DNA from: Macrostomum lignano
Taxonomy: Eukaryota
Reading direction: 5' to 3'
Assembly: GCA_002269645.1 (NCBI GenBank)
Contig: NIVC01001944.1
Location: 62,001-126,000 of the forward strand
Length of the DNA stretch: 64,000 bases
The translations under genes were made by a program, and so were the position numbers. Below are positions 1 to 58,145 of the stretch, one piece after another (positions within the stretch are counted from its first letter, which is position 1; every line of letters begins with the position of its first letter). The notes under the pieces were generated by a model. It ran no database searches. It saw nothing but the letters and a program-made list of their open reading frames with translations, and had not been told where the DNA came from.

Positions 1-2388
1 GAAATCTTTCAATGGAACCGAGAACACAGCTACCAAAAAAAGATTGTCAATGACGAAGCTAACCGAAAGTTCGAAACAGCTCAGAGTTGCTACTACTGTG
101 ACGAATCTTTTTCGTGTCCGTCCGAAAAACTGTGGGATCACGATCATCTGACTGGGCTTTTCCGCGGTGCTGCGTGTGCTGCATGCAACCTCAAGGCTCA
201 GTTGAAGCGACGCTTTTTGCCAGTGTACTTCCACAACCTCAAATCCTACGACCTACATCTGATCTTTTCGACGGCTTTGTTCAAGATGACACACTGGAAG
301 TTGAGCGTGACTCCCCAGACCAGTGAACGGTACATTTGCTTGAAGGCGGAATTTCCAGTTGGTGAGTACACCTTACCGTCCGGCAAGAAGCGTCCGCTCA
401 ATTTTACCGTCCAATTTTTAGACTCACTCAATTTTCTGGGTTGTAGTCTTGAAACTGTGATGCGCACTCTAACGGCTGAAAGTTGCCCTCTTACGTTGGA
501 GATGAAGGTGCACCATCCGCAACTTTCGAATGCTATTCTGCTAAGTAAGGGGATTTTTCCCTACGACGCTGTGAAGAAACCTGCCGATTTGCTTGTTACG
601 AGTCTGCCGTCACAAGAGAACTTTTTCAACGTGCTCACGCAATCGCCTTGTCCTGATTCAGACTATCAGCATGCACTGCGAGCGTGGCATGAATTGCAAG
701 TCAGTAACCTTGGACAGTACATGATGGCCTACCTAGAATTAGACATCCGCCAATTGGCAGATGCATTCGAATCATTCAGGAGATTGAGTCTCGCTGACGA
801 CGGCTTGGATCCGGTGCACTTCATCACGGCACCAGGATTGTCATTCGAATCGGCACTTAAGTGTGCGAAACATCGCTTGGAGCTTCTAGTCGATGGTGAC
901 ATGTACCGCATGGTGGAGGCTGGCATCCGAGGAGGAATTACTTTCACCAATGTACACCAGGTCTCCGTGAGTGGTGGAGATGAAGAGGAAGAGGAACGCA
1001 GATACTTACTTCCGCTAGATGTTAACAACCTATATGGTCAGGCTCTCTCTATGCCGCTAGTGAGTGAATTTCGATGGGTCGATCAAGACGAGCTGCGAAG
1101 TTGGGATGAAAGCACTGTTCTCAACATGCAAGATGATGGCGGCCATGCCTATCTCATTGAAGTCGATCTGCAATATCCAGAATGCATTCACCAGAAGACC
1201 GAGGAGCTGCCACTGGCCCCAGAGAAGGGAACTATTGAGTTTGAAGACTTTCCAGCCTATATGCAGCAGCTATGGCATCAGCTAAATCCAGGTAAAAAGT
1301 ACCACGGAACGCGAAAACTACTTCTCACTTGTCAAGACAAAGAAGCCTATGTTGTTCATAGCAGAGTGCTCAAGTTCTACCTTCAACAAGGCGCGTAAGC
1401 AAGTTCCGGCGAGCCATCAGCTTTCGACAAGAGCGAGTGTTCAAGAGCTACATCGATAGCAACAGCGAAAAGCGTTCAAAAGCATCTACAGAATTCGAAA
1501 AGAACTACTACAAGAGCAAGAACAATAGTCTTTTTGGAAAGACTATGGAGAACGTTCGGAAGAGGAGAGATGTGAGAATCTGTAACAGTGATCATCAAGC
1601 TCAAGTTCTGGCTTCAAAGCCTAACGTCAAGACATTCAGCATCATCAAAGAAAACTTGAGCATCTTTGAGCTAAGCAAGACATCCGTTCGCCTCGACCGG
1701 CCAGTGTACATCGGCCAGTGTGTTCTGGACGATTCAAAGCTTGTTATGTACACTTTTCTACACTAAGTTGAAGTCCTGGTTCACGTCAACTCGCTGTGCT
1801 GCCAAGATTCAACTATGTGGTGGCGACACAGATTCTCTTTTTCTGTGCGTCAAGAACATCGACGTTCCCAACAACATGCTGCCCGAAATGATTGACAGAG
1901 GACTGTTGGATACATCCAACTATCCAAGCCAGCACCCACTACGCTCCGACTCTTTAAAGGCTCGATTGGGTTGCGTCAAAGACGAGTCTGCAGGCTGCAT
2001 CTACAAAGAGTGGATTCTCTTGAAGCCGAAGCTATACTCCTTTAAGAGTGCTCAGCAGTCCTTGCCTGACAAGAAGACAGCCAAAGGCGTACAGAAGGCT
2101 GTTGTGAAGCGCACCATTACTCACGAAGACTTTAAAGCCGCTTTTGAAAGCCTAAAGCAGCTAAATGTGACCGTCCGACGTATCACTAGTGCGAGGCATC
2201 AGCTGTTCACGGTGGAGCAGGAGAAGAAGGCTCTGACTGTTTGGGAGGACAAGAGAGCGTGGATTTCAGCCAATGTCAGCCTCCCGTTTGGCCATGTCAG
2301 TCTCAAGACGCATGCGGGCTCTCGCAGACGGAGAAGGCCGACGTCTTCAATCTCGGGCGATGAAAACGCGAAGCAGTCGAAGACTTGA
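1..2388 (+). pseudogene. Protein-primed family B DNA polymerase, 5'-partial, two frameshifts (~1392, ~1755)
   Basis: Frame 1 is open from base 1 with an EndoVII-like Zn motif (CYYC...DHDHLTGLFRGAACAACN) and exonuclease FHNLKSYD. Motif A is LDVNNLYG, motif B KNNSLFGKTMEN, motif C GGDTDS. C-terminal LKPKLYS and KTAKGV. The three ORFs join by small indels. Confidence 0.95.
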
Positions 2389-2756
2389 AAATCTGTTTAC
2401 TTTATCTGTTTCTTATTTGTGTGACGCTGAATTGCATCCGATGCTAATGTTTTTGTGAAATTAGCCTCCATTATGCTCTGGTGAAATACGCTTGTATTTT
2501 GATTTTTCCTTAATCAAATCAAGGTTCTAAACAGCGCTATTTTACGTCCCTGTTGTCATTATTTATATTTTTAAACTTTAAACTTTTTCCTTTTTTCAAT
2601 GATTTACTTAATGTATTTTTGTGTCAGGTGGAAATTGGTTGGTTGTTTGAGCATAAACGAAATAAAAAAAAGCGAGTTAAACAGTTTTTATTCACATTAT
2701 TCGTGAAAATAACATTTCTTGTCGTTGAGTTTTTGTATTTTGAGCTTGTTTGAAAG

Positions 2757-3338
2757 TTAAGTTTTCAAGGAAGAAAAAACAACATTTCTCAAGCGCATGT
2801 AGTCGGTATGTAACTGGTTAATTGATTGTGCACCACTTAAAACAAATGAGCCACTATGAAACAACAGACATTTACAAAAGTTAAGTTTGAAAACCAACGC
2901 AAAAAACGATTCAGGTTCATACTCAGATTTCGGGATTTTCCTAGACAAATCCGACAGAGACAGTGCAGAGCAAAGGGAAAGCTGTCCATTAGCAGTAATA
3001 GTTTTAATTCGAACACAAATAGTTTGATGAGGCAGCAGTTGAGCCGGCACTCTCCGATGCAGCATAGCCACGAAGCGACGGGCAGCCCTTTTGGCGTCTG
3101 CGTGGGTCTTGGCACCGCAGATGCTCAGTTGTCTAGTAGGGTAGAGTAGCAGAGTCACTCTGGGACTCCGCATCCGCTTGATGAGCACCCGGGGCCAGAC
3201 GGGCCGGTAGATCACATGAGCCATGCTGAGAGCCAGTTCCCGTAGAGGCAACTGGGCGCCCCTGCCACCATCCAGTCTCAGATCCACTCCGCCAACCAGA
3301 TTGGTCACTCTTAGGGCTGTAGCTGCAGGTGGACTCAT
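2757..3338 (-). CDS. TBP: TATA-box-binding protein (TBP)-like protein encoded inside the Polinton, 193 aa from ATG at 3338
   Basis: Two TBP repeats. Repeat 1 (VTNLVGGVDL...YRPVWPRVLIKRMRSPRVTLLLYPTRQLSICGAKTHADAKRAARRF) aligns to yeast NIVATV...[46 protein letters not shown]. Repeat 2 (YEPESFFALVFK...LLFHSGSFVLSGAQ) aligns to YEPELFPGLIYR...LIFVSGKIVLTGAK. Confidence 0.92.
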   Translation of the reverse strand: MSPPAATALRVTNLVGGVDLRLDGGRGAQLPLRELALSMAHVIYRPVWPRVLIKRMRSPRVTLLLYPTRQLSICGAKTHADAKRAARRFVAMLHRRVPAQLLPHQTICVRIKTITANGQLSLCSALSLSDLSRKIPKSEYEPESFFALVFKLNFCKCLLFHSGSFVLSGAQSINQLHTDYMRLRNVVFSSLKT

Positions 3339-3855
3339 TTCGACCCTTGACTTCTTCACCAAATCTTCTGCCAAATTCACTGCCCCTGTGCCACGGACAC
3401 TGCTCGCTTCTTAAGTTGATGCAGAACTTTGGCTTAAGCCAACTGTAGTGCAGCAATGAATTTCTCACTGCACAGCCAGTATCTGAATCTTCAATCGAGG
3501 GTGCTCCCAAATCTTCTAGGTTATAAACCTGTCTACCAAGCAGCTCAGTCAGGAAAATAGACTTCCTTTCCCCATTTGTCCAGATCGGACCACTGGCAAT
3601 CCTCAGAATGTCTTCCGCCAGTTCCATGTACGGACGGGTTCCATCATTCCACTTAAACTGGTGCAGACTCTTTGATAGCTGTCTGTAGCAAACTCGCATG
3701 TCAGGTGAGACTCTCTCCCATGGATACGGAGGTGCGTACACATGGTGAGCAATTCGGTAGCTTCCCGCTCTGATTTGAACAACTGCCAACTCCTTCACAA
3801 CAATTTTTTTGCTTGTGCTGTTGCACAGGAATCCTTGGAAGTCAATGTAGTTCAT
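3133..3855 (-). CDS. DnaQ/DEDD-like 3'-5' exonuclease family protein; its 3' end runs into the TBP ORF
   Basis: IDFQGF...VKELA...HHVYAPPYPW...HQFKWNDGTRPY...VYNLEDLGAP...CAVRN pattern, typical of small exonuclease-like ORFs in invertebrate Polintons and large DNA viruses. Confidence 0.6.
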   Translation of the reverse strand: MNYIDFQGFLCNSTSKKIVVKELAVVQIRAGSYRIAHHVYAPPYPWERVSPDMRVCYRQLSKSLHQFKWNDGTRPYMELAEDILRIASGPIWTNGERKSIFLTELLGRQVYNLEDLGAPSIEDSDTGCAVRNSLLHYSWLKPKFCINLRSEQCPWHRGSEFGRRFGEEVKGRNESTCSYSPKSDQSGWRSGSETGWWQGRPVASTGTGSQHGSCDLPARLAPGAHQADAESQSDSATLPY

Positions 3856-3883
3856 GATGCAGCTTTCCGGAGAAATTTCGGAG

Positions 3884-4576
3884 TCAGTCCCCCTTCTTAT
3901 ATACTTTTCTTCCGGGCAGTTTCAGCCAGGCTGTGTTGCTCCCGTACCCCTTGACTAGACTCTCCTGTTCTTTCTCCAGTTCACCCCCTCTGCTGGTTGC
4001 CATTTTCTTCTTAACTGATTTACCAACAGCAGAAAACGGAACATTAAGCTTTTTCTGCTGCAGCAAATCGATGAACTCGTTCCACCCAACTGGTTCACGC
4101 TCACATGGCGAATCCCTCACTGCGTGCTGAATCAAGTCCAGTATATTTGAGGAAGGGATTGACGTGCCTGCGATTTCCACCTCTCCGTTTTCAAAAACTC
4201 GAATCAGCTCTGGATTGGTGGACAGGATCGTCCATAGACTGCGAGCCCTGGTTTTGAATTTCTGTGGCACCGACTTGCTGATCTTCTCTTCCCAGGTGTT
4301 CATCTGTGGTGTCTCTGTTTTCATCAACTTGGCTTCAGTATTGCGTGCTCCTTCTTTTCCAGCGTGCTTGCGCTTGGCCAGCAAACTTTGCATTGCACTT
4401 TGGTACATGGCGGTTTTCACATCTTCTGGACAATCTTCGGCATACAAGATATCATCGCATTTCTTTTGAGCCTGCTTCAAGTCAGCGTCAGTGCTATTCT
4501 CATTTGGCTTCAAATTCTGCATCAACATCTCATACTCTGCTTTAGGAATCAGAACCATTTCTGAAAATTTGTTCAT
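3884..4576 (-). CDS. Conserved Polinton hypothetical protein
   Basis: N-terminal MVLIPKAEYE and a later SNILDLIQHAV...EPVGWNEFIDLL motif, seen in the ORF following the ATPase in animal Polintons. Position in the late-gene cluster agrees. Confidence 0.7.
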   Translation of the reverse strand: MNKFSEMVLIPKAEYEMLMQNLKPNENSTDADLKQAQKKCDDILYAEDCPEDVKTAMYQSAMQSLLAKRKHAGKEGARNTEAKLMKTETPQMNTWEEKISKSVPQKFKTRARSLWTILSTNPELIRVFENGEVEIAGTSIPSSNILDLIQHAVRDSPCEREPVGWNEFIDLLQQKKLNVPFSAVGKSVKKKMATSRGGELEKEQESLVKGYGSNTAWLKLPGRKVYKKGD

Positions 4577-5399
4577 TTTGCTTCTTCTTCTTTACCAGCT
4601 TAAGCAGAATCGGGAGTATTTTAATGAAGCCAGCCTTCAACAAGTCTGTCTTTCTTCTCTGCAGAGTAATTTTTCGAATTATCTCTTTTGACTTTGCAAG
4701 AATAGCTTTTTCATCGAGCGAAAACGATAAATTGTTTTGTAAGAGATTATGACAGGCCTCGACAAGATGGGGTCGCTGGTTGGGCAGAATTCTGGCCCGC
4801 ACTCGCAGCTCATCGGGAGTTGATGGGTGAAAGTCTAGGAACAGGTAGGCTCCCCTGTTCTGCGCGGTCACGTGCTTGAACACTGACAGCAGAAAGCCGG
4901 GCTTCTCTGTAAAGCACTGCCTGCCCAGTGCTGCAATCTGCAGCTGGTCTCTGGGGTTTTTCAAGATAGCTAAATACATTACATTCAAGCTCATTGTTCG
5001 CGACTCTTTTCCCTTGAAAAATATATTCTGAGTCAGCATCACCAAAAAGCACGGCAAGTGATGTGCGATTCCTGTGAAAAAATTTCGCATTGAAGCAGAA
5101 TTTGAAGTTTCCTCTATTAAGTCATCGAAAACAACCAGGTCATTGGGCCTAAGTGCTGCCTCGATGTTGGTGGGAAATCCCTGGCGCAGCTGCACACCTA
5201 GGTTGCTCAATTCTGTATGGCCTGCCTGTGAGATCCCATAGTACCACAGAACTCTGCCAGGCTTCACATCAAACATGACGTCTCTGTACTGGATCAGGTG
5301 TTTGACAAAGGTTGTTTTTCCTGCATTGGTGGGCCCGCAGACAATCATGCAGCTTCCCTGCCTGAGGCGGATATCGTAGCAAACTCGCTTTTCTTCCAT
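4542..5399 (-). CDS. FtsK/A32-like packaging ATPase with a fused amphipathic C-terminal segment
   Basis: Walker A GPTNAGKTT, Walker B LVVFDDL, plus AHHLPCFLVMLTQNIF, KNPRDQLQI and AYLFLDFHP motifs. Confidence 0.93.
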   Translation of the reverse strand: MEEKRVCYDIRLRQGSCMIVCGPTNAGKTTFVKHLIQYRDVMFDVKPGRVLWYYGISQAGHTELSNLGVQLRQGFPTNIEAALRPNDLVVFDDLIEETSNSASMRNFFTGIAHHLPCFLVMLTQNIFFKGKESRTMSLNVMYLAILKNPRDQLQIAALGRQCFTEKPGFLLSVFKHVTAQNRGAYLFLDFHPSTPDELRVRARILPNQRPHLVEACHNLLQNNLSFSLDEKAILAKSKEIIRKITLQRRKTDLLKAGFIKILPILLKLVKKKKQNEQIFRNGSDS

Positions 5400-5428
5400 G
5401 TCTAATGCATAAATATAGTTCTAGAAAA

Positions 5429-5941
5429 TCACGGAAATCTTTTTCTTAAGTTGGCTTCAAATCTCTGTAAGATTCTATCATTCAAATAATTATTTTCATT
5501 AGCATGCAAATGCTTCAGAATCCCCTCAAATGACCGATTGAACAGAAACTTTTGATAAGCAAAATAGATGCAAAACACTCCGCATTTATTAGAGTTAGCA
5601 CATTGAAATCTGTTTATATTGCTTCGGAGCCAAAAGCCAGTTGTTTTAATCTCTCGAAACAAATTATAAACCACAGATAAAATTTCAGGTTCCCAGCCGA
5701 GGGAGTTGAACAACTCAATAGAATTTTCTTGCCCAACATAGCATACCACCCAGTGACCAAATGAGCCATTGTGCTGAAGTAGAACAAAAACAAACTTGTT
5801 TTCAAGGGAAATTGATGATCGAAATTTTCTTTTTACATTCAAGGGCAGAGAATTTTTATAGCGCAAATGTAAAGTAATTATGAAAAATTTTTGGCAAGGC
5901 AAAATTTTTTTGGTTAGATTGAATAGTTGAATTGCGTCCAT
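5429..5941 (-). CDS. Adenain-like cysteine protease
   Basis: GHWVVCY (His), ELFNSLG (usually FDSYG), FQCANSNKCGVFC (Gln, Cys). Confidence 0.88.
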   Translation of the reverse strand: MDAIQLFNLTKKILPCQKFFIITLHLRYKNSLPLNVKRKFRSSISLENKFVFVLLQHNGSFGHWVVCYVGQENSIELFNSLGWEPEILSVVYNLFREIKTTGFWLRSNINRFQCANSNKCGVFCIYFAYQKFLFNRSFEGILKHLHANENNYLNDRILQRFEANLRKRFP

Positions 5942-5946
5942 ACCAG

Positions 5947-7229
5947 TTAAGAGGAATAGTCCAGCAAAAGCTCCCGGTGCTTGGTAACCTCAATCAGTGA
6001 GTCATACAGGCACATAGCAATCAGGGACACCGCTTCATTCAGTGCCTGTTGGAAGCGAATCTCCAGCCGCAGGTTGCCCTCCTTCTGTCCGTACCACAGA
6101 GCCGCTCCCTCGGGTGTGAGATCGAATGCAAACACCGTGCTGTTGTTGGAGAAGAGCTAGTAGGGTATCCACGGCACCGAGTTCGTTTGGCTTGCAGATT
6201 GACAGCTTTTCAGGTAGTGCAAGTATTCTCTTACAAAGGAATTGTTTTCAGGTGTGAAGGCGCCGTGGCACACGGTTTCCCCACCTTTCTTTAGAGCCAA
6301 CCGGCTAAGGTTGAAGCTCTGGAACTGGAACGGGCTCGCGTGATGATGACCGTTGAATGCACGGTGGCTCACGAAGGCCAGCATGATGAACTTCGGCAAT
6401 TTTCCATGAGTGAATCCTTCAATGTTTTTTGACTGAATACCCTGGGGAAGGATGAAGTTCTGCATTTCAGTTCGCTCGATGGGATACAGTGCATTTTGGT
6501 TTGTCAGCCCCTGCTCATGGGCCAGGCTGATGTGGGGCACCACTTTGACTCGGCGAAGATGCAGAATGCTGTGAGAGATTTCCATTCGGTATGCCGCGTT
6601 GTTTGCATTCGGGGTTCTGATGGCAAAGGCCCCATCGCTGGGCACCAGTTTAATGTGCAAGTGCAGATTGCTTAGCAGAAACACTGGGCACTGGAAAACA
6701 TCGCTGAAGAGCGGTCCCGCATACTCCATCCATTGGGATTCCCTCTGACTCTCCGTGTGCTCTTCAGCTGCCGAGTCCGGCTCCAGGAAGCCAGCAGGGT
6801 AAAGTTTTAGTTGCTGGGCATCGGATGAGCTTATTAGTGCTTTGAAGTACGCATGGTAGGGATAGAGCTGGTCTCCACCAGACACCACTCGCTGGTTAAT
6901 GCTCACAATTAAATCTGAGAAGACTGTAGACAGAACAAAATTTTCTGGGTGCATATCACTGTCTCTGCGCTCGGTGATGATGCCATCTCCATCTCGAACA
7001 TCCTCCCTCAGCAAACCCCCATCCAGTCTCACAAGGCGGCAGCGAATATAAAGAAAAGAATTAAGCAGATCTGTATATTCATCGGCAGATTGGTGGCAGT
7101 CAAATTCAATGGGGGAGTTTGCAGTAATGGAATTAACTGGGTGAATATCAACATAAGTAGCTTTTTCAATGCAGGTTTGTGAACGGGCGTTTTAAACAAA
7201 TCAAGTCTGGGATTGAATCCGTAAGCCAT
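5947..7229 (-). pseudogene. Double jelly-roll major capsid protein, frameshift ~7180 and in-frame TAG at 6157-6159
   Basis: LDLFKTP then, in the shifted frame, IEKATYVDIHPVNSITANSPIEF. Further motifs YPYHAYFKALI, GKLPKFIMLAFVSHRAFNG, SPFQFQSF, and VFAFDLTP...GNLRLEIRFQQAL in the same frame after the stop. Confidence 0.92.
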
Positions 7230-7231
7230 GT

Positions 7232-7604
7232 CTATGACAGAGAGTCGAGCACGCGTTTCACAGTTTTCTTGCTGACTTTTCGCTTTCGCTTTCCTCCGCC
7301 TGCTGCATTCTTCTTTGCTTTCGTCTTCCTATTCTTAAAGCTTTTTCCCACTAGCCTTGCTTGACCTCGTATTGCGATTTCCACCAGTTGCCTTTCGGGT
7401 GCCCTTCTTCTTCTTCAATCGTTTCGGACTTGCTACAGTATTTCTTTTGCGCCTGACGTTGCTACGCGTTGAAGATGATGATGTAGCCGCTGGCGGAGGC
7501 TGGTATGTCATGATCCCTGGGAAGCTCCCACAGCCATAGAGTGCAGGCTTTTCGTGTGCTGTCCTCACCCCCGAATATTGCTGGATCAGCTGCTGGTAGT
7601 TCAT
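7232..7604 (-). pseudogene. Small Lys/Arg-rich core-like protein, 1-bp frameshift ~7340
   Basis: ATG overlaps the minor capsid stop (ATGA). Reads MNYQQLIQQYSG...RRKRNTVASPKRLKKKKGTRK, then SFKNRKTKAKKNAAGGGKRKRKVSKK in the shifted frame. Lies directly upstream of the major capsid gene. Confidence 0.6.
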
Positions 7605-8419
7605 TGAATGCGTTTCTCCCGAATCTGAACTGTGAGCAGAACAGGGCTGTGAGTCTGTGCAATCAGTAGGCAACCATAGAAGTCCCGCAGCTGAACTCGA
7701 ATGCTGTGAAGAAGACTGATTCGTTGAATCGGGAAGAATATTGTTTTCTTAAATATTTTTGACAGGTAGTTGCCCCATTCAATGTTGGCGTTCACTCCGA
7801 CTGTTCTCAACAGGGAGCCCCAGTTGCAATTAGTTGACTCAACGATACTGCAGTGTACATTGATTAAGCTGGTGCGCGGGCAGCCAATGCAATGCTCGGA
7901 TACGCGGCTCCCTGGTTGGATTTTCACAGCCTGGTTTCCAAATCCCAGCCAATGCAGAATTTTGCTGGATTGAAGAAACAGCTCTGCTCTCGCAGTGTTG
8001 TTGTGCACCACAGTTCGTGAGTTGCGGATTTCGAACTTCATACCAAATTCCCTGTTGCCACTACGCCCCATCAGGCCGGACTCATCAGCCTCCATCTCAG
8101 ACTCCCTGTCACTCATTGCATCAAAGAACAGCGAATCAGAGTTGGCCAGCAGCTCATTCAGGCGCTCCACCAGCTCCTCCACTCTAGCAAAGCGTCCGGG
8201 TTGAAGAACCAGGGCCTCATGCTCTCTTCCATCTGAGACAGTGAAGCAGTAAGGCTCGTCAACATTGAACCATGCAGCAGGCAGATGGATTTCAGCCAGA
8301 CCTGCCTCATAGTCTACATTTCGATCCAAGTAAATAGGTGAAGACAGGTAAAAATTAAAGTCACTAGGAGTACCTTCAGCATGCTCACTGTTAATCAAAA
8401 TAGTTCGCATTATAATCAT
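7601..8419 (-). CDS. Minor capsid (penton) protein
   Basis: SDFNFYLSSPIYL...YEAGLAEIHLPAAWFNV N-terminus and HSIRVQLRDFYG...LTVQIR C-terminus match Polinton single jelly-roll proteins. Confidence 0.85.
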   Translation of the reverse strand: MIIMRTILINSEHAEGTPSDFNFYLSSPIYLDRNVDYEAGLAEIHLPAAWFNVDEPYCFTVSDGREHEALVLQPGRFARVEELVERLNELLANSDSLFFDAMSDRESEMEADESGLMGRSGNREFGMKFEIRNSRTVVHNNTARAELFLQSSKILHWLGFGNQAVKIQPGSRVSEHCIGCPRTSLINVHCSIVESTNCNWGSLLRTVGVNANIEWGNYLSKIFKKTIFFPIQRISLLHSIRVQLRDFYGCLLIAQTHSPVLLTVQIREKRIQ

Positions 8420-8447
8420 AAACTACATGATGAGGGATGTGTCAAAG

Positions 8448-9273
8448 CTAAACCTTTCTTAAGTCTTTTTCATCCACCCAGCCTGTCGAATCGTAGCCGG
8501 CCCACTTGACAAGATAGCGAATTTTAGCTCTTTGCTTTTGTGTCTTCAACACTTTCTCAATCACGTATAGTCGCTGTGAGTCCGGCACCGCCTGCAGCTC
8601 GTGCTCGTGAAAGAAGCCTTGAATCTCTTCTCCCTTCATGTCTCGGATCTTGTACATGTAAGGATAATGTTTCGGAGCTTTTGAAACTACAGTGTACACT
8701 TCCTCACTCCAGTTTGCTTTGTACCCTTTTTTGAATAGCCGGGGCGCGTTAGAAATTCTTACAGTTTGATTTTCACTGAACTTTGGTTTCCTGACTTTAT
8801 CCAAAGTTTCTATTGCCTTGCCATCATACAGGTTCATCCAAACTTCCGACTCATTTTGCTTGCAAACATTTCTTGGCGCCATTCTGATGCTTCTGTGAAA
8901 AGTAGCATTGTACGACTTCACTAACTTTGGCAGCACATCTACCCAGTGCAGAGTGCTGTTGTGAGTGAAGTATCGCCACATTTTATTCTTTAAAGTTCGG
9001 TTCCATCTTTCTACAATCGCTGCTTTCTGCTCGCTGTTTGTTTTAAACGCTAAAATGCCATTCTCTATGCAGCTCTGTCGAAAGCTTGAGTTGACAAATT
9101 CTTTCCCCTGATCTGAGCGAACTGTTCGCGGCCTGCGCTTCGTGCTCTTCAAAATTGCCTCGAAAGCAGACCGCACTTCTCCTGCTGATTTATTCTTTAG
9201 TGGCTTGGCCCAAGCAAACTTTGACAGCACATCGATGCATGTGAGGATATACTTGTATCCGTGATTGTACTTT
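8448..9273 (-). pseudogene. Retroviral-type integrase, 3' part with chromodomain
   Basis: YKYILTCIDVLSKFAWA, RSDQGKEF, IVERWNRTLK, and a C-terminal YVIEKVL...YLVKWAGY chromo-like motif. Interrupted at 9273. Confidence 0.95.
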
Positions 9274-12200
9274 ACTACTAAGGACCCATTTATATGTTGA
9301 TTTTGGAGGTGAGGTGGGTGTCAACCCTCCTCGCCTCTCATTGGCTGGCGCCCCGATCACTAGGTGATCGATACCCGTATCGATATCGGCGCTCGGCGCG
9401 CGCGCGCCGCAGGCACGTGGCGCCAAGCGCCGTCCAGCCGCAGGCGACCCTCCCCAGCCACCGGCGACCCTCCCCAGCCGCAGGCGCACCTACCGATATG
9501 TATGCTCACCCTACCGACATGTACCCCGATATGTATGCCCTCCCGAGCCGCAGGCGCACCCTCCCTCCAGAGCAGCAGGCGCCCATGCTGCAGGCGCCCC
9601 ATGCTGCAAGCACCCCGAGTGTACACTCTCCCAAGCCGCAGGCACCCGAGTGTACACTCTCCCATGCCGCAGGCACCCCGAGTGTACACTCTCCCAGTAC
9701 GGGAGTACACTCTACCACTCTCCGATATGTATGCATACACAGATATCTAGTCAGCGATACGTACCTCATCCCCTCTCTCACCCACATCTCAACTAGAGAA
9801 ATCGAACCCAGGTCGCGCCCATACTAGGCCACTACACGGTTGTGGGGTATAGGGAGCGAGAAGTTTCAACCCTAACGCTGACGCAGCCCTGTAGCAGGGG
9901 ACAGATAACAGGCGGCCCCCTGTAGCAGTATGAGGTGGGGGTACAGAGAGACACGGGGTGTTGGGACAGAGAGGCATGTACGGGCAGAGAGGGGTGGGTG
10001 GACAGAGAGACGGCCACTAGGTTATTATACTGTTGAAGCATAGGGAGCGAGAAGTTTTAACCCCGATGCTGACGCAGCCCTGTACAGTGAGTGTGTACGG
10101 GCAGAGGGGGGTGGACAGAGAGATGTGAATAACACAACCAGCTGCAGGAGCCGGATAGAGAGGCGCATGCTAGGACAGAGAGGCAGTGTGAGTCACACAC
10201 CCCCACAGAGAGAGCCGTACAGAGGATAGAGAGCTCCCTCCCCAGTTGCAGGGGACAGAGAGGCAGGCAGGGTATGCAGGGGCATGCGAACAGTCAAGGG
10301 GCCACGCGAGGATAGAGTGGAGGAGCAGAGATGTGTATGGACAGAGAGCCGGCCACGCGTGCGTAGTGTGAGGGAACAGAAACATATGGAGCAGGAGGGA
10401 GATAGGGCGCAAACGCGCTGGGTAAGGGAGCCACACAGGGCGGTACAGTGAGACACAGGCAGGGGTGGAGCCGTGCGTGGACAGAGCTGAACGGCACGGT
10501 CGGCTGCAGGAATAGGATGATAGAGAGGCGCGGAGAGGAGGGGACAGAGAGCAGTGTGCAGGGGTAGGCAGCCACGCGGGCAGGGGAACAGAGGCGCGTG
10601 TAGCCAGTTGCAGCCCGGGGCAGAGAAGTGTGAAGGGGGCCTGGGGCAGAGTTCCGAGCAAGGCACAGAGAGGTAGGGTCCGGTAGCCATGTATAGACAG
10701 GGACCCACGCGAGGGCAGGACAGGGGAGTAGACATGCAAGTTGCATGCAAGGCCAGAGAGGTGTGCGCGGAGGGAGACAGAGAGCAGTGTGTAGGGGTAG
10801 GTAACAGCAAACTTTAGTAGAGGTGCGTGCGGGACGGAGAAACCAGTCTGAGCGTACAGAGACGTTACAGAGAGGTACACAAACATAGAACAAAGCGAGC
10901 AGAGCACATGTGTAGGGACAGAGACGTGAGGGAGAATCGACCAAAACACACTATGTATTTCCAAAAGTTGGTTTTAGTGCAACATATTTAATAGTGGGTA
11001 GTATAATAGTATGTACATAGTAGGTGTAATAGTAGTAATAATAGTAAGTATATTAGCCCAAAAGGTAGGCTAAAACAGGCTAAACTGTGTGTACGCATCC
11101 TCATCACCCCACAAGCCCCCTCTCCCGCCAGACTCACTCTTCCAAACCCTCTTATATTGCTGTATGAAGGAAAATATAGTGTAAAAATACAGATGTTAAC
11201 CGTTAGACCGCTGAAATCAGGGCACACTAGAGGGGTTTCGGGGTCGGCATGCTCTATGTAAGCTGCTTGAGGAGGTTCCAAGGGCGTTGGGAGGGTTTCC
11301 ATTATGTTTAGAAAAAAACTAGGGGCTTAAATACAACGTTTTATTCAAAAAGTAGGTTATTTTAATGAAATAGCTGACACAACATTGTAGAGAGTAGAAA
11401 TTTTTATAAGAAACCAGGCATTTTAGCAAAAATAAACCTTCAAACCACATAATATTGAATAAAAAGCAGACATTTTCAATTATAAACCGCAAGTATTTTA
11501 ATAGAAAAGTAAGCAAACAAGGCACAAAACCAGCAAATTTTACCTTTATTATTTTAATGTTACCGATAAGGTAGAGAGTAGAAACTTGTGAGCTGTACGG
11601 AGTTAGAAAGTATTAACCAATATGTATCGTATGAATTATTAGTTCAGTACCAGCCATTGGTCAAGCGAGCATTTATGAAGTTATTACGAGTGATGAAGGG
11701 ATAGAGAGCTATATACAGGAAGACAGTATCCTTCTAAACCACCACGAACAGATTGCTAATAGAGATAAGCTTTGTCTGTGTGCAGTATGAGTAAGCGAAG
11801 GCGGGGCAAATACTTTTCCACATGCCGGACAGAACAGTATTGTGCTAGGATTTCTCTCGAAATCGCGGTACGTTACTAGTTTTTATCACACCATCCAGAT
11901 GCGTCAACTAGTCAGCAGTAGTCATTTATATGTTATTAGAACTTACAAACCCAGGTCAGGTAAATATTACAAAGAGTATATTACGTACACACGCCAACTC
12001 CGAATACCAAGCCATACTAGTCTACTTGCAGTGCTCCTGGAGGGAAGGGACGGTCAAGAGTTACACACCAAGAATACATTCACACAAAGAGTACACCACT
12101 CGAGCCCCGTCCATGCGCCCCGATATGTATGACGCAGGCAACCCTCCCGACATGTATGCAGCAGGCGACCCTCCCGACATGTACCCCAACATGTACGTCG

Positions 12201-14991
12201 CAGGCGACCCTACCGACATGTACCCCGACATGCAAGTAGACTAGTATGGCTTGGTATTCGGAGTTGGCGTGTGTACGTAATATACTCTTTGTAATATTTA
12301 CCTGACCTGGGTTTGTAAGTTCTAATAACATATAAATGACTACTGCTGACTAGTTGACGCATCTGGATGGTGTGATAAAAACTAGTAACGTACCGCGATT
12401 TCGAGAGAAATCCTAGCACAATACTGTTCTGTCCGGCATGTGGAAAAGTATTTGCCCCGCCTTCGCTTACTCATACTGCACACAGACAAAGCTTATCTCT
12501 ATTAGCAATCTGTTCGTGGTGGTTTAGAAGGATACTGTCTTCCTGTATATAGCTCTCTATCCCTTCATCACTCGTAATAACTTCATAAATGCTCGCTTGA
12601 CCAATGGCTGGTACTGAACTAATAATTCATACGATACATATTGGTTAATACTTTCTAACTCCGTACAGCTCACAAGTTTCTACTCTCTACCTTATCGGTA
12701 ACATTAAAATAATAAAGGTAAAATTTGCTGGTTTTGTGCCTTGTTTGCTTACTTTTCTATTAAAATACTTGCGGTTTATAATTGAAAATGTCTGCTTTTT
12801 ATTCAATATTATGTGGTTTGAAGGTTTATTTTTGCTAAAATGCCTGGTTTCTTATAAAAATTTCTACTCTCTACAATGTTGTGTCAGCTATTTCATTAAA
12901 ATAACCTACTTTTTGAATAAAACGTTGTATTTAAGCCCCTAGTTTTTTTCTAAACATAATGGAAACCCTCCCAACGCCCTTGGAACCTCCTCAAGCAGCT
13001 TACATAGAGCATGCAGACCCCGAAACCCCTCTAGTGTGCCCTGATTTCAGCGGTCTAACGGTTAACATCTGTATTTTTACACTATATTTTCCTTCATACA
13101 GCAATATAAGAGGGTTTGGAAGAGTGAGTCTGGCGGGAGAGGGGGCTTGTGGGGTGATGAGGATGCGTACACACAGTTTAGCCTGTTTTAGCCTACCTTT
13201 TGGGCTAATATACTTACTATTATTACTACTATTACACCTACTATGTACATACTATTATACTACCCACTATTAAATATGTTGCACTAAAACCAACTTTTGG
13301 AAATACATAGTGTGTTTTGGTCGATTCTCCCTCACGTCTCTGTCCCTACACATGTGCTCTGCTCGCTTTGTTCTATGTTTGTGTACCTCTCTGTAACGTC
13401 TCTGTACGCTCAGACTGGTTTCTCCGTCCCCGCACGCACCTCTACTAAAGTTTGCTGTTACCTACCCCTACACACTGCTCTCTGTCTCCCTCCGCGCACA
13501 CCTCTCTGGCCTTGCATGCAACTTGCATGTCTACTCCCCTGTCCTGCCCTCGCGTGGGTCCCTGTCTATACATGGCTACCGGACCCTACCTCTCTGTGCC
13601 TTGCTCGGAACTCTGCCCCAGGCCCCCTTCACACTTCTCTGCCCCGGGCTGCAACTGGCTACACGCGCCTCTGTTCCCCTGCCCGCGTGGCTGCCTACCC
13701 CTGCACACTGCTCTCTGTCCCCTCCTCTCCGCGCCTCTCTATCATCCTATTCCTGCAGCCGACCGTGCCGTTCAGCTCTGTCCACGCACGGCTCCACCCC
13801 TGCCTGTGTCTCACTGTACCGCCCTGTGTGGCTCCCTTACCCAGCGCGTTTGCGCCCTATCTCCCTCCTGCTCCATATGTTTCTGTTCCCTCACACTACG
13901 CACGCGTGGCCGGCTCTCTGTCCATACACATCTCTGCTCCTCCACTCTATCCTCGCGTGGCCCCTTGACTGTTCGCATGCCCCTGCATACCCTGCCTGCC
14001 TCTCTGTCCCCTGCAACTGGGGAGGGAGCTCTCTATCCTCTGTACGGCTCTCTCTGTGGGGGTGTGTGACTCACACTGCCTCTCTGTCCTAGCATGCGCC
14101 TCTCTATCCGGCTCCTGCAGCTGGTTGTGTTATTCACATCTCTCTGTCCACCCCCCTCTGCCCGTACACACTCACTGTACAGGGCTGCGTCAGCATCGGG
14201 GTTAAAACTTCTCGCTCCCTATGCTTCAACAGTATAATAACCTAGTGGCCGTCTCTCTGTCCACCCACCCCTCTCTGCCCGTACATGCCTCTCTGTCCCA
14301 ACACCCCGTGTCTCTCTGTACCCCCCACCTCATACTGCTACAGGGGGCCGCCTGTTATCTGTCCCCTGCTACAGGGCTGCGTCAGCGTTAGGGTTGAAAC
14401 TTCTCGCTCCCTATACCCCACAACCGTGTAGTGGCCTAGTATGGGCGCGACCTGGGTTCGATTTCTCTAGTTGAGATGTGGGTGAGAGAGGGGATGAGGT
14501 ACGTATCGCTGACTAGATATCTGTGTATGCATACATATCGGGAGAGTGGTAGAGTGTACTCCCGTACTGGGGAGAGTGTACACTCGGGGTGCCTGCGGCA
14601 TGGGAGAGTGTACACTCGGGTGCCTGCGGCTTGGGAGAGTGTACACTCGGGGTGCTTGCAGCATGGGGCGCCTGCAGCATGGGCGCCTGCTGCTCTGGAG
14701 GGAGGGTGCGCCTGCGGCTCGGGAGGGCATACATATCGGGGTACATGTCGGTAGGGTGAGCATACATATCGGTAGGTGCGCCTGCGGCTGGGGAGGGTCG
14801 CCGGTGGCTGGGGAGGGTCGCCTGCGGCTGGACGGCGCTTGGCGCCACGTGCCTGCGGCGCGCGCGCGCCGAGCGCCGATATCGATACGGGTATCGATCA
14901 CCTAGTGATCGGGGCGCCAGCCAATGAGAGGCGAGGAGGGTTGACACCCACCTCACCTCCAAAATCAACATATAAATGGGTCCTTAGTAGT
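9274..14991. mobile_element. 5718-bp palindromic non-autonomous element (arms 9274-12030 and 12231-14991, 200-bp spacer), 6-bp TSD TACTTT
   Basis: The arms are reverse complements (the ORF track is mirrored around ~12130). TACTTT occurs at 9268-9273 and 14992-14997. Removing the insert restores the integrase frame MIPFAK-YNHGYKY. Confidence 0.93.
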
Positions 14992-15239
14992 TACTTTGCG
15001 AACGGAATCATTTCTACCAGATCCAGTTCCCACTGACAATCCATAGCTCGAACTACAATTGGTGCTCGGGGATAGTTTCTTCTTGATGGCTTATGTAAAG
15101 TGTAAACTGCCTGTTCGTTAAGCCAATTCTTAACAGATTTTTCTCCCACTTTGATACCTTGTTTTCGAGTCTCATTCAGAAGTTTGTTGCAACCAGAAAA
15201 ACTGGCAGGCTGCTCGGGATTAAAGAATATCTTTTCCAT
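14992..15239 (-). pseudogene. Retroviral-type integrase, 5' part
   Basis: FNPEQPASFSG...YTLHKPSRRNYPR...QWELDLVEM is the typical Polinton integrase N-terminus and carries the first catalytic Asp. Confidence 0.93.
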
Positions 15240-15586
15240 TTGCTAAAAAAATCAACTGAGACAACTTTCTTTCTTAAATGCTTAAAGGCTGCGACGAATA
15301 AAGTTTGATAGAACAACAGTGTATTTTACATGCAGTAACATATTATACGCTAAAGCAAGCATTTTAGCGGAGCACAACACAGTGATTCGATTCAGAACAG
15401 TTACAGACAAAACAAAAGGAAACTGAGTAAAGTTTAAATGAAATCAAGTTGTTAGTCAAATTGTTGAAAATGAAGTCACGCGAACTTCTGAATAAATGTT
15501 GATTTTTTACCACAATTTTTTCTCGATTACTATAATTTTTATATGCGCATGGTAATCAAAGAAATACAAAATGCGAACTATCGCTG

Positions 15587-16354
15587 TCATTTAAAAACAA
15601 GTTCACTCATCATCTTCGTCCGAGTTCGGCAGCTCGTCACGGGGTATCCACCTCGGCTCTTGACCGCATCCTGCCTGCGCAGAGCCCACGGTTGCTTGCG
15701 CTTTCTGCTGTTGTTCACCGCAGCCGCATGAGCCCGGAATTGATACCATACCAGATCTTCTTGCAAGTTTGTGTCCTCTGACGGGATGTTCCCAGCGCCA
15801 GCTCGGGGCAGAGGCGTTGAAGTCACCGGCTCAGTAACGATCGTCAGGTCTGTTGGTGAGCGGGCCTCTTCTTCACCCTCATTCGGCTCAGTCTTGATGG
15901 GAAGCTTCACTGTGACCTCTTCATCGTCGTCAGATGAGCTCAGCTCATAGTTCATTCGCATGCTTTGAGAGAGCTCTGCCAGCTGCTTGTCAATCCAACC
16001 GGAAGCGTGCCACAGTTTTTGCCACAAGAGCGGAGGCAGAGGCACTGTGTTGCGTCTCAGAAACTCCTCACAACAGTCCTCGGGCAGTCGCTTCAACCAA
16101 ATTGTTCCTTGTCTAACCTCAATAAACTTGTCAAAGCCCAATTTCACAACCTTGGTTTCACCGCTTAGAGCAACCTTCACGAGCGAGCGCTTTACCTCCT
16201 TCAGTTTCGCCCACTGATGCGTATTCAGATTGAAGCCGGGAACTCCAGGCTTGAAGCTGGCGCTGCTGCCATGCCGAAAAAACTTCCTTATGGCGATGAA
16301 TTTTTGCCCTTCAAATTCCTGCACCTGCACCTTGTAGCCTTCGCCGATGTCCAT
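15587..16354 (-). CDS. Tandem PC4/Sub1-like ssDNA-binding protein with acidic and basic tail
   Basis: DIGEGYKVQVQEFEGQKFIAIRKFF...PGVPGFNLNTHQWAKL matches the PC4 pattern. A second, degenerate copy follows: KLGFDKFIEVRQGTIWLKR...TVPLPPLLWQKL. Confidence 0.8.
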   Translation of the reverse strand: MDIGEGYKVQVQEFEGQKFIAIRKFFRHGSSASFKPGVPGFNLNTHQWAKLKEVKRSLVKVALSGETKVVKLGFDKFIEVRQGTIWLKRLPEDCCEEFLRRNTVPLPPLLWQKLWHASGWIDKQLAELSQSMRMNYELSSSDDDEEVTVKLPIKTEPNEGEEEARSPTDLTIVTEPVTSTPLPRAGAGNIPSEDTNLQEDLVWYQFRAHAAAVNNSRKRKQPWALRRQDAVKSRGGYPVTSCRTRTKMMSELVFK

Positions 16355-17096
16355 GATTCACGTTAAGTCGTCTTCAGAGATTAAAAAGTGAAGTATGATC
16401 TTAAAAAATGCTTTTCAAAGCTGGCCCTTTGATATCCCCATGGCGGAGTGGGGTGGGTGCCGGAGGGTGGGTGGATGCTAGGAAAGGGTTGGCCAGTATA
16501 CATTAGCCTCCCCCACTCCAGTTGTACAGCACTTCACACTGCAGGCACAGTGCTGGGCTGATTTCAATTCAAGCAAGCATATTACAAACATAAAACAGCA
16601 GCGGCTCCACCCAATTTCAGTGGCTTTCCCTGCGACAGAGTGCACCAACGCATTTACATAGGCGCTGTGTTCACACACTAGACAGCGATAGTTTGCATTT
16701 TTTGCTAAAAAGAAGCTACAGGCCGAAAGAGTAAGCAAACAAAAACCTGCGAATTGGCAAATTTTTAAAAGCATACGAGCCTATTATAATTTCAGTATCT
16801 TCTACTATGCATAAATGATTAAAAAACAGTTGCATTTCTATACCATCTCAAAAGTCAGACACAGCCATATACAAGCACAGTATACGCACAGCACCCACAA
16901 TTTATTTTATTCATACGCGCTTCTCGTTTTCTGCTCCTACCGCTGCTTTATGCTTACATGAAATCCTATACATGTAGTTGCAATGCTCATCCTTCCCCCA
17001 TACCTGCTACTCAGCGAAGGCTTGTAAGTTTTAGGCGATCAGGGCTCTAGGAGCCATCTCTCCAGTACGTAAACCAGTGAGATTGGCCACCCCTCT

Positions 17097-17651
17097 TATC
17101 TCCGCAGTGCTTAGCCGTCCCCAATGCACAGAGATAGGGCTCATATCTCCACAGTGCTTAGCCGTCCCCAATGCACAGAGATAGGGCTCATATCTCCACA
17201 GTGCTTAGCCGTCCCCAATGCACAGAGATAGGGCTCATATCTCCACAGTGCTTAGCCGTCCCCAATGCACAGAGATAGGGCTCATATCTCCGCAGTGCTT
17301 AGCCGTCCCCAATGCACAGAGATAGGGCTCATATCTCCACAGTGCTTAGCCGTCCCCAATGCACAGAGATAGGGCTCATATCTCCGCAGTGCTTAGCCGT
17401 CCCCAATGCACAGAGATAGAGCTCATATCTCTGCAGTGTTAACCATCCCCATGTAAAGAGATAGGGCGCCTCTCCTCCTATCTCTGCAGTGTTAACCACC
17501 CCAATGTAAAGAGATAGGGCGCCTCTCCTCCTATCTCTGCAGTGTTAACCATCCCCCAGTGTAAAGACATAGGCCGCCCCTCCTATCCCAATGCATTACC
17601 CCCTCCTCCTATCTCCGCCCTGTCGGCCGTGTTCTGCTAACCCCTACTACT
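17097..17651. repeat. Polinton TIR with 47-bp tandem units, ending CTACTACT
   Basis: About 7 copies of cagtgcttagccgtccccaatgcacagagatagggctcatatctcca (starts at 17105, 17152, 17199...), then variant units and the terminus. Confidence 0.85.
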
Positions 17652-18368
17652 CAAGCACTAAGCCACCCAACTTAGTGCTTGAAGGTTTCGGTCTAGGCCT
17701 GTCCAACTGAGTCCACAACATTTCGAACATAATTGAAACACCAGCTCCGGTATCTGATTCACATCGGATTGCATGCTCCTTTTGTCCTTCCAGTATTTTT
17801 TCTGTAATTGCAATCGGATCCCTGGGTCTCTGCTGACGGCAACAATTACTTGCCTCTGCTGTAAAAAATCCCTGTACTCAGACTTTCACTCACATGCTGC
17901 ACGGAAGGCTTTCTGGCGGCTGTCTACTTCTTCTGTTGTCGTCCTGTACGGCAAACTTTAGCGAAGTGATTATTCTTACCGCATGCGTTACACTTACACG
18001 TTTTGCCAAACGCTGGACGTTGTCCTTTCTGGTACACACCACCATACTTTGGACAAGATCTTCTTGACTCTTTAGGCGGTTGTATCCTACCCGCATCATG
18101 TGAATGCTTTGTAGCGAATCAGTCCTTGGTGCGGCCTTCATTTTTTGTCTCCAGTAGGCTTCGCTCGTAGCCTGCTTGACGTCTATTATTTATAGTTCTT
18201 GGTTATCAGCTTGCCGATAATCGCTTTGCTGTTCAGACCACGTATGAACTGATCTCTTAACCGCTCGTCGTTGTTTGAAAACTTGCACTTCTCCGCTCCC
18301 TTTAGCAGTCTTTCGGAAAAGACGCGAATTTACTCTGTTGCTTCGCGTCCGATATTTTGACATTTGAA
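17652..18368 (-). mobile_element. Inverted Gypsy gag-protease fragment
   Basis: The minus strand reads ERLLKGAEKCKF...LRDQFIRGL (gag) and SDTGAGVSIM (aspartic protease). Confidence 0.8.
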
Positions 18369-18872
18369 CCGTCCCCAATGCACAGAGATAGGGCTCATAT
18401 CTCCACAGTGCTTAGCCGTCCCCAATGCACAGAGATAGGGCTCATATCTCCACAGTGCTTAGCCGTCCCCAATGCACAGAGATAGGGCTCATATCTCCAC
18501 AGTGCTTAGCCGTCCCCAATACACAGAGATAGAGCTCATATCTCTGCAGTGTTAACCATCCCCATGTAAAGAGATAGGCCGCCTCTCCTCATATCTCTGC
18601 AGTGTTAACCACCCCAATGTAAAGAGATAGGGCGCCTCTCCTCCTATCTCTGCAGTGTTAACCATCCCCCAGTGTAAAGAGATAGGGCGCCTCTCCTCCT
18701 ATCTCTGCAGTGTTAACCACCCCAATGTAAAGAGATAGGGCGCCTCTCCTCCTATCTCTGCAGTGTTAACCATCCCCCAGTGTAAAGAGATAGGCCGCCC
18801 CTCCTATCCCAATGCATTACCCCCTCCTCCTATCTCCGCCCTGTCGGCCGTGTTCTGCTAACCCCTACTACT
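18369..18872. repeat. Second, partial copy of the Polinton TIR end
   Basis: Same 47-bp units and an identical ...GTTCTGCTAACCCCTACTACT terminus, followed by TGCTTG. Confidence 0.88.
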
Positions 18873-48661: not shown

Positions 48662-49713
48662 TGGCTCCGGAGTCTACTTGACAAAGAGAGCAGATGACTT
48701 CTGATGAATATCTACTTAACATCCTAAAGTGTGAATAATGCCTGTAAAATGTACTTATTGACTTATTGAACCCGAAATGTGCTAAAGAGTAGAAATTAAC
48801 AAATACATAGAATAAACTTAAACAATTTCACGACTCAAAGTTGCAAATACGTTGAAAACAAATTCCAAGCAGATTTAATTAGACTTGATTTGTGACTTCA
48901 AAACGTGTCTAAAAGTTGATTGACTGGTGTATATTCATTAAGCTAATTAGTAAGCTGTCAGCAGTCTACTATGAGTAGAACAAAAACAAAAGCAAAACAT
49001 GCTGCAGTGAGGAAAAAACTTTGAGAAGAAATGAAAATGAAAATCAGTCTAAACAGACTACTATCAAAGGCATAGTCGGTGCATGCAGATAATACTGAAC
49101 AGAGCTTGAGGGTAAATAGATTAGGCGGCAAAAAATCTTGGCCACCGACTAGATAAGTAATCGATTGACAGTAAAAATTGTAGCTTATAAAACTGAAATC
49201 GGGTGTGAATTGTAAGGCCACAGTGGTTATTATCAGAAAATTTTCAAAGCGAAGCACACAGCAAAATTTAAAAAGTACATGCGTGACTTTTACTCTATAT
49301 AGCTAGCTATTGTAAGTTTGTTCGACCTTGAACGGCAAGCGCACGCGTTGGTCGCGTGATCAATGTAACCTTTATCAATAGTTTCAAACAGCATCACGTG
49401 ACACTAGAGCAGTTTGCAGAAACGCCATGCACACAAAAGTATAGAAATCATTAACAAGGACTCTCAAGGACGTATTTATTTTAATAAAAGGAGTCATCCC
49501 TTCTCAAATTTAGGAAGTCAAAACTCGGCGAGATGGGAACTTTTCTGTGCTTTTCGAACTACATCTAGATAATCCGTTCTGTATTTTACTGACACACTTT
49601 TTTGCCTACAGCCTCAATTTCATATGCAAGGACCAGGAAATTGAGCAGGAAACTTTCTATCTCGCCAGTTCAATTCGAGAGCCGCTTAGCTACAAAATCC
49701 AAGCTCTCCAAGG

Positions 49714-57534: not shown

Positions 57535-58145
57535 CCTAAACCCTACTCAGTATAGCCCTAAACCCTACTCAGAATCGCCCCTAACCCCTACTCAGAATCG
57601 CCCCTAAACCCTACTTAGAATCGACCCTAAACCCTACTTAGAATCGACCCTAAACCCTACTTAGAATCGACCCTAAACCCTACTCAGAATCGCCCCTAAA
57701 CCCTACTTAGAATCGACCCTAAACCCTACTCAGAATCGCCCCTAAACCCTACTTAGAATCGACCCTAAACCCTACTCAGAATCGCCCCTAAACCCTACTT
57801 AGAATCGACCCTAAACCCTACTCAGAATCGCCCCTAAACCCTACTTAGAATCGACCCTAAACCCTACTCAGAATCGCCCCTAAACCCTACTCAGAATAGC
57901 CCTAAACCCTACTCAGAATCGACCCTAAACCCTACTCAGAATCGACCCCAACCCTACTCAGAATACCCCTAAACCCTACTCAGAATCGACCCCAACCCTA
58001 CTCAGAATCGACCCCAACCCTACTCAGAATCGCCCCTAAACCCTACTCAGAATAGCCCTAAACCCTACTCAGAATCGCCCCTAAACCCTACTCAGAATAG
58101 CCCTAAACCATACTCAGAATCGCCCCTAAACCCTACTCAGAATCG
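57535..58145. repeat. 23-bp minisatellite (cctaaaccctactcagaatcgcc)
   Basis: Tandem copies. Confidence 0.9.

Follow-up and report, generated by a model that had tools for sequence, protein, structure and literature searches.

The 64,000-nucleotide stretch of Macrostomum lignano DNA analyzed here (the window; contig NIVC01001944.1, positions 62,001 to 126,000, forward strand) carries a Polinton of the AGTAGT-ended type, and its integrase gene is interrupted by a long palindrome whose nature is our subject. Measured against an unbroken natural copy of the Polinton (98% identity), the insertion breaks the rve and chromodomain integrase open reading frame (ORF) at about codon 82-83. Both flanks read TACTTT, a 6-mer present once in the unbroken copy, so that a target-site duplication (TSD) cleanly splits the host gene, as a preliminary description of this DNA had proposed. 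The inserted element runs 5'-ACTACT...AGTAGT-3', and a global alignment of its 2757-bp left arm (9274-12030) with the reverse complement of its 2761-bp right arm (12231-14991) leaves four one-base homopolymer indels and a single substitution (G11246 versus A13015). On the palindrome, its few arm differences, the TACTTT duplication and the ACTACT ends, the alignment agrees with that description, and so does the Pfam search with its statement that no gene is recognizable, none of the six ORFs of the window arm giving a match.

The 200 bp between the arms had been taken for a spacer at the center of the element. Other copies hold this stretch in both arms, where it is paired, and in alignment with the copy at C1201 the window copy passes directly from position 2938 to position 6118, a loss of ∼3.2 kb with TG microhomology at the joint. 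The 200 bp are therefore leftover arm, the true center having been deleted. The deletion junction occurs once in the whole genome, and the window element is a one-off deletion copy of a multicopy palindrome family that we call H (Table 1).

Table 1. Coordinates of the palindrome and of its host Polinton in the window
Feature	Position	Strand	Remark
Left TSD copy, TACTTT	9268..9273	+	From arm/flank alignment
Right TSD copy, TACTTT	14992..14997	+	Single copy at the same site of the unbroken natural Polinton
Terminal heptamer ACTACTA, common to H and P elements	9274..9280	+	Inverse of the host AGTAGT ends
Hypervariable terminal cassette of fixed length, nt 8-27	9281..9300	+	Same at both ends, unique to the window copy
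Subterminal region in common with P elements: conserved core, then variable short repeats	9301..9893	+	
H-specific non-coding arm, GA-rich then AT-rich, with no conserved frame	9894..12030	+	
Unpaired remainder of left arm (formerly the "spacer")	12031..12230	+	Partner removed by the deletion
Deletion junction, TG microhomology	12229..12232	.	∼3.2 kb gone, central hairpin included
Right arm, inverted copy of 9274-12030	12231..14991	-	Cassette 14965-14984, terminal heptamer 14985-14991
Host Polinton integrase, C-terminal part (rve core, chromodomain)	8448..9273	-	
Host Polinton integrase, N-terminal part	14992..15242	-	
Host AGTAGT-type Polinton	1..18872, start upstream of the window	.	Right end 18872

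The H family is spread through the genome. A 1031-bp piece of the arm matched at 96-100% identity in 40 of 40 scored genome matches, many of them in inverted pairs (126 candidates), and a subterminal 30-mer has 212 exact matches against none for its control, part of these ACTACTA-type ends being examined here. Of 58 elements with both ends, 56 lie between exact copies of a 6-bp target sequence, as does one more, C1201, once its left end is taken to include an additional ACT, which bears out the expectation of other copies with different 6-bp duplications. A script assigned 32 of the 58 to a two-armed H type, 20 to the P type described below and 6 to short or nested remnants, the H class taking in the hybrid C428 and the rearranged C843; since C2243 and C2536 have their duplication in common, the independent events are somewhat fewer. 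Full-length H copies measure 8.1-9.4 kb. In 17 of the 19 copies compared, 0-2 substitutions per ∼1730 bp separate the two arms, whereas medians between copies range from 26 to 93 substitutions over the same length, from which we infer that the two arms of a copy were formed together. Both ACTACTA ends and a 6-bp duplication are also kept by short derivatives (1.1-4.1 kb) at C168, C1597, C4048, C1242 and C190, and lengths close to several of these recur on other contigs.

At the center of full-length H lies an imperfect palindrome of 87-89 nt flanked by (AC)n and (GT)n tracts. A 31-mer from it has 45 exact matches in the genome (control 0). The core folds as a mismatched hairpin with a three-base loop, presumably a stable triloop of the GNA type, and the z-score of -12 for this fold owes much to the flanking tracts. 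Of 19 copies examined, 16 have the core, and in 12 of these the apex falls at 0.49-0.51 of element length; 14 cores reduce to seven close variants, every one of them imperfect. A conserved imperfect hairpin thus stands at the symmetry axis, as in a hairpin-ended replicon; DNAs that replicate through hairpins typically have perfect arms around a conserved mismatched core. Repair or gene conversion alone would be expected to erase the mismatches of the core as well. The orientation of the center within the integrated palindrome is arbitrary, and an Rfam search returned only mir-3149, below threshold and driven by the microsatellite. The centers of C530 (L070), C1197 (L024) and C1607 (L253) switch orientation midway or are duplicated, which is suggestive of strand switches at the hairpin.

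The termini of H recur on a second kind of element, P, of 8.7-10.5 kb and with inverted repeats of up to ∼0.9-2.6 kb. P encodes, over several exons, a Pfam DNA_pol_B_2 domain (PF03175), that is, a family B DNA polymerase primed by protein (pPolB). One polymerase exon is found at ∼45 places in the genome at no less than 95% identity, the protein is 98% identical to UniRef entries labeled Macrostomum lignano, and a PDB sequence search with it returned phi29 polymerase only. By its motifs, it presumably also has terminal-protein and protease domains. A terminal-protein domain is described for this polymerase family (PMC11161782; here and for every paper given by accession or DOI, the statement refers to the cited part of the source). 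Splicing was followed on the hybrid C428 in three runs that we call RNA-type, a label given only because they show splice joints, no run being recorded as RNA: an 83-nt CT..AC intron is skipped in all three and a 67-nt CT..AC intron in two of the three, neither being skipped in the DNA run. The hybrid itself (L053; G000:C428:214927-223625) joins the polymerase half of P to an H arm and has a 6-bp duplication with unlike cassettes at its two ends; no contig among those listed spans its junction (loose ends 5112-5113).

P further encodes an acidic 310-aa ORF, which matched no family above E=0.05 and nothing in the atlas, and a small PC4-like ORF, which has a weak Pfam match in P and one of E=6e-6 in the sister elements P2 described below, atlas leads of 0.85-0.87, and no relative in viral contigs. 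Queries for integrase, capsid, protease and ATPase (tblastn, E<0.01) found none in seven P and four P2 regions, although a very divergent capsid could escape this search; the Polintons C114 and C291, included as positive controls, did match. The protease query was confirmed as Peptidase_C5, whereas the query proteins that we take to be capsid and ATPase have no Pfam matches. The preliminary description had seen here a second Polinton family. What stands is that the ends are common to a family with a protein-primed polymerase; the integrase, capsid, protease and ATPase of a Polinton were not detected in P. The description's proposal of a non-coding element mobilized in trans is supported, H having no gene and its ends belonging also to the polymerase-bearing P. 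The resemblance between H and P covers the outer 420-620 bp of H and one inner block (62-67%), both matching the P inverted repeat. Neither 20 lone-end stretches nor 18 further loci contained a third type of coding segment, distant polymerase matches at 11 loci revealed no ACTAC-ended element with an integrase, and the end motif has no match in viral or metagenome contigs.

Several long copies were considered as hosts of an autonomous parent and rejected. C106 (21 kb) and C271a (41 kb) instead contain nested AGTAGT Polintons with duplications of their own, inside which their integrase matches fall; C2693 has a tandem-repeat insert, C558a copies of a long-terminal-repeat (LTR) retrotransposon, and C126 another transposon. 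The coding inserts of C558a, C513 and C126 appear to be different sorts of element that nested there. In affected copies nested transposons occupy only one arm.

The pairing of a polymerase element with a palindrome recurs in a sister family. Its polymerases, ∼71% identical to that of P over the 182 aa tested, belong to elements of 9.5-10.5 kb (P2) with ACTACGTA ends, of which the genome holds 118 (control 1). Part of these ends was read; among 18 elements retrieved, selected for the most part on length, there are 15 non-coding elements that are either palindromic or deleted (H2; a nested transposon sits in one of them), two P2 and a single remnant, and exact duplications flank 16 of the 18. 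Four H2 palindromes measure 9.1-9.5 kb, and two symmetric ones have no arm substitution over ∼4.5 kb. H and H2 do not align with each other and the H2 core is a different imperfect hairpin of 58 nt, yet it closes on the same triloop apex as H, C-TGC-G / C-GCA-G. In four of six P2 copies the non-polymerase end resembles the H2 arms at 72-74%, which fits a snap-back origin followed by divergence. Some P2 elements also carry a dUTPase gene (L219:914-1369, Pfam E 1e-30; L108:4376-4837). A role for G.T mismatches of the core as substrates of a Vsr-like polymerase domain was considered and is unsupported: the label came from database names of distant polymerase homologs, H2 cores have 0-2 loop-strand G.T pairs, and no such Pfam domain was found.

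The ends of these elements combine constancy and extreme variation. The heptamer ACTACTA, whose invariance is built into the search for ends, is likely the origin of protein-primed synthesis. Inside it, nt 9-27 exist in 47 forms of nearly fixed length (103 ends from 58 elements, lone ends included), with 0.4-1.7 bits of information per position next to an almost invariant core. The window's 23-nt end has no other match because its bases belong to this hypervariable cassette; an autonomous element starting ACTACTAAGGACCCATTTATATG, which had been suggested as the thing to look for, is found nowhere else in the genome. Seven whole 19-nt cassettes are common to H and P, as are most of the sub-modules. 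Among 19 H copies the cassettes differ by 49.9% between copies and the arms by 2.4%; a cassette is common to only 2 of the 20 pairs with 10 or fewer arm substitutions, and arm and cassette distances are related with rho 0.33. Linkage inside the cassette drops from an r2 of 0.24 to ∼0.03 over a distance of 12 nt, and four gametes are seen for every pair of columns separated by 10-15 nt. Within one element the two ends nevertheless carry matching cassettes in 30 of 32 cases for the H type and in 13 of 20 for P. The sister family has 21 forms in 30 ends and the AGTAGT Polintons 3 in 24. In C2693/C106, C261, C24, C811 and C1165 position 8 (A/T) is unlike between the ends and nt 9-27 agree; this mismatch and the extra ACT of C1201 would fit slide-back initiation.

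On balance we think it probable that the window palindrome is a deleted copy of a gene-less snap-back satellite of ∼9 kb, copied by the P polymerase and inserted by a borrowed integrase. Observation supplies the family, its duplications and arms, the imperfect center, the termini in common with P, the genes and splicing of P and the pairing in the sister family; on this basis replication might proceed as follows. The P polymerase would initiate at the ACTACTA end, and the displaced H strand would fold into a duplex of 4.5 kb that has the C-GCA-G/C-TGC-G hairpin as its closed end and presents the same origin. One arm would template the other, with the mismatched core passed on as a unit, and synthesis round the turn would restore a 9-kb double-stranded palindrome, to be integrated with a 6-bp stagger. 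The shuffling of nt 8-27 may come about when short nascent strands linked to the end swap templates as P and H molecules replicate together; pairing in the fold-back would then carry the cassette over to the opposite terminus, with greater reliability in H than in P, matching what is observed. The window copy likely lost its center at or after insertion and did not multiply.

Several points weigh against this account. The replication steps are read from the anatomy of the sequences, no hairpin-nicking enzyme was identified, and no Rep/NS1 or resolvase gene was found. About 2.2 kb of the outer H arm has no match in four P, three P2 and four Polinton copies, so that a copy-back origin of H from P is supported only in part. 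No source of the integrase was found: the P, P2, H and H2 elements tested carry none outside nested AGTAGT Polintons, and the four integrase groups with visible ends all have AGTAGT there. For a fifth group, its integrase 61-62% identical to that of C271, the four stretches of ∼6.5 kb examined have no clear terminus and no P or H match. A bias at the target site was considered as a clue to a separate integrase and dropped, as the difference between a central YR (pyrimidine-purine) in 35 of 53 targets and in 7 of 16 for AGTAGT Polintons is not significant (p=0.15). In two of the 19 H copies the arms are 6 and 34 substitutions apart, and gene conversion or assembly polishing could likewise account for arm identity. 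Finally, C2693 and C106 are one insertion in two contigs, so that the counts overstate independent events, and the center stands in opposite orientations in the two, which indicates that arms can also recombine in place.

A first alternative, which we regard as unlikely, makes H a required or helpful non-coding second segment of a bipartite P+H replicon, for instance as a decoy of long double-stranded RNA. H and P are alike in length and in copy number (45 center matches and ∼45 polymerase matches), their pairing recurs in the sister family, and termini in common are typical of segmented pPolB viruses (PMC8502044, PMC8363768). The H arm is covered by contigs of the RNA-type runs, unspliced among the pieces listed, and two of the three runs show an excess of A>G over T>C (70 versus 21 and 64 versus 13), not localised, which is no more than a hint of double-stranded RNA. 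The third run, however, has no such excess (23 versus 20; DNA run, 23 versus 22), and DNA carry-over could account for the cover. Known segments, moreover, encode proteins, whereas H has no conserved frame, and a palindrome is the shape expected of a snap-back defective genome (PMC13506859).

It is distinctly unlikely that H is instead a non-autonomous foldback transposon moved by cut and paste, its arms kept alike by conversion and its likeness to P reflecting a common end for the same enzyme. Very long inverted repeats, the target duplication, modular subterminal repeats, the 1.1-4.1-kb derivatives and the inversion of a center in place all suit such an element, and, P having no integrase, some outside enzyme must move these ends. 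It leaves unexplained, however, why a mismatched core with the same triloop apex is kept in two families that cannot be aligned, and why cassettes reshuffled between copies still match at both ends. Nor is there a transposase element with these ends among the 58 ACTACTA and 18 ACTACGTA elements, a kind of homolog that the preliminary description had named as telling against a Polinton connection.

That description suggested a copy-back of a helper genome, and one could take every palindrome as such an independent dead end. Palindromes of coding ends do occur with duplications at C592 and C3085/C4430, so plain copy-back forms integrate too. AGTAGT Polintons as well are found as copy-back palindromes with arms of 4.8-6.4 kb and the integrase present twice, at C592 (G000:C592:149057-159651, with a 6-bp duplication), C2301 (C2301:56086-70947) and C3189 (C3189:41702-55822). 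One conserved center shared among H copies largely refutes such an origin for the family, which is stable and multicopy, has near-identical arms at different loci and carries the 2.2 kb of arm not present in P; we judge this explanation very improbable.

A spliced protein gene hidden in each H arm, such as the missing integrase or capsid, would answer the absence of both from the system and the apparent RNA-type cover of the arm. It hardly deserves credence: variable positions of H show no codon-position bias, the length is divisible by three in 8 of 45 gap runs and not in the other 37, tblastn with six Polinton core proteins found no match in three of three H copies, tblastx of H against H2 gave only scraps at E=0.003, and no GT-AG joint occurs in H among the 15 of 27 joints listed. 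Least credible of all is that misassembly folded the sequence back on itself; fold-back chimeras are a familiar fault of long reads and the evidence across the window junctions consists of contigs and not raw reads, but the left and right flanks differ and together continue one integrase gene, dozens of loci have distinct duplications, the center is conserved and asymmetric, and nested transposons lie in one arm only, so that this doubt, already raised in the preliminary description, can be set aside.

The host Polinton ends at 18872, followed by TGCTTG, the 6-mer that also precedes its left end. The preliminary description held that the insertion disabled the host, but the host polymerase region as assembled also lies in several frames, so the insertion need not be the cause. 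A preference of H for Polinton targets was likewise rejected, as 2 of 133 flanks match Polinton references and both come from the window copy; reverse nesting occurs, Polintons inserting also into H and P elements. The host Polinton encodes a TATA-binding-protein homolog (window 2757-3410, minus strand; Pfam TBP, E 9e-22), as does a related nested Polinton (L042:6523-7083, Pfam TBP, E 3e-21). Its right end is locally rearranged: a second host-type end stands at ∼17651 (window 17621-17670), after which the left flank of the host reappears inverted, and the subterminal repeat block is doubled within 17068-18872. Adjoining it at 18900-21200 are decayed frames like those of an LTR retrotransposon, with what look by eye like reverse transcriptase, RNase H and integrase motifs, and window 44900-62000 holds many minisatellite arrays, their units 15-23 or 77 bp long.

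More broadly, and tentatively, since we hold it to be plausible rather than probable, these elements may represent an undescribed class of animal mobile DNA: Polinton-derived replicons with a spliced polymerase and a protein that binds single-stranded DNA, each paired with a dedicated 9-kb hairpin satellite, using a borrowed integrase and bearing a reshuffled 20-nt end "barcode". In detail, the satellite would have one protein-capped end and one conserved closed hairpin end, and template switching would take place at initiation. If this is true, a nested chain of hyperparasites, from Polinton to polymerase-only replicon to hairpin satellite, is recorded in an animal genome. To our knowledge, the model proposed for Polinton replication has not been demonstrated so far. 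It invokes a single-stranded fold-back intermediate and protein priming (PMC4061559), and H and P elements would be a natural record of that step; reset arms with a retained mismatched core, together with a reshuffled but end-matched cassette, offer direct tests of fold-back and template switching, which are possible in a laboratory animal that transcribes the polymerase gene and splices its RNA. A pPolB branch with neither integrase nor capsid and with satellites of its own would be overlooked by surveys that require integrase and capsid genes, and dozens of near-perfect 9-kb palindromes are likely fragile sites and sources of double-stranded RNA.

A literature search for palindromic Polinton satellites, for integrase-less pPolB elements in Macrostomum lignano and for hypervariable Polinton ends found no description, Repbase/Dfam, subscription papers and supplements being outside its scope, and the cited parts of 10.1101/2023.08.22.554363 and PMC6431247 contain nothing similar. 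Among known systems, foldback transposons (Drosophila FB, Galileo, Tm1) resemble H in their kilobase inverted repeats, TSD and asymmetrically deleted non-autonomous copies. Foldback transposons make duplications of 7-11 bp and are moved by P- or Mutator-type transposases, whereas for H no cognate element with a DDE transposase was found among the elements examined and the ends are common instead with pPolB elements. Parvovirus dimer junctions and the hairpin telomeres of poxviruses and African swine fever virus have perfect arms and a short conserved, incompletely paired core, as H does; the outer ends of H, in contrast, look protein-primed.

Snap-back defective viral genomes are fully palindromic and non-coding, carry the same end twice and depend on a helper polymerase (PMC13506859). 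H too is a fully palindromic non-coding genome with its helper's end at both termini, but it differs in being a fixed, diverged lineage with its own hairpin core, in integrating into chromosomes with a duplication and in existing as two sister families; copy-back genomes are described mainly for negative-strand RNA viruses (PMC13506859). Bidnaviruses and the Drosophila Vesanto virus have a Polinton-derived polymerase and molecules of similar size with common termini (PMC4061559, PMC8502044, PMC8363768). H and P match this in the polymerase of P, in molecule size and in common termini; the segments of those viruses, however, encode proteins including capsids, whereas here the elements are integrated and, among the elements and lone ends retrieved, neither a capsid segment nor a protein-coding second segment with capsid or helicase was found. 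The inverted repeats of bidnaviruses do not form hairpins of the parvovirus type (PMC4061559).

With Polintons/Mavericks (adintoviruses), finally, H has in common the 6-bp TSD and terminal inverted repeats ending in a short tandem motif, there a trinucleotide repeat, and through its partner P the pPolB (PMC8097293). None of the Polinton polymerase, integrase, capsid, protease and packaging ATPase genes was found in H, which is gene-less and a single palindrome, and the 5'-(ACT)2 ends of H and P are the inverse of (AGT)2. Three end motifs are given for vertebrate Mavericks in the cited part of PMC8097293, (ACT)2 not being among them, and intact vertebrate Mavericks are intronless, whereas the P polymerase has introns and P has no detected integrase, capsid, protease or ATPase. 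The H/P system can thus be placed as a variant of these known kinds and is possibly a class of its own.

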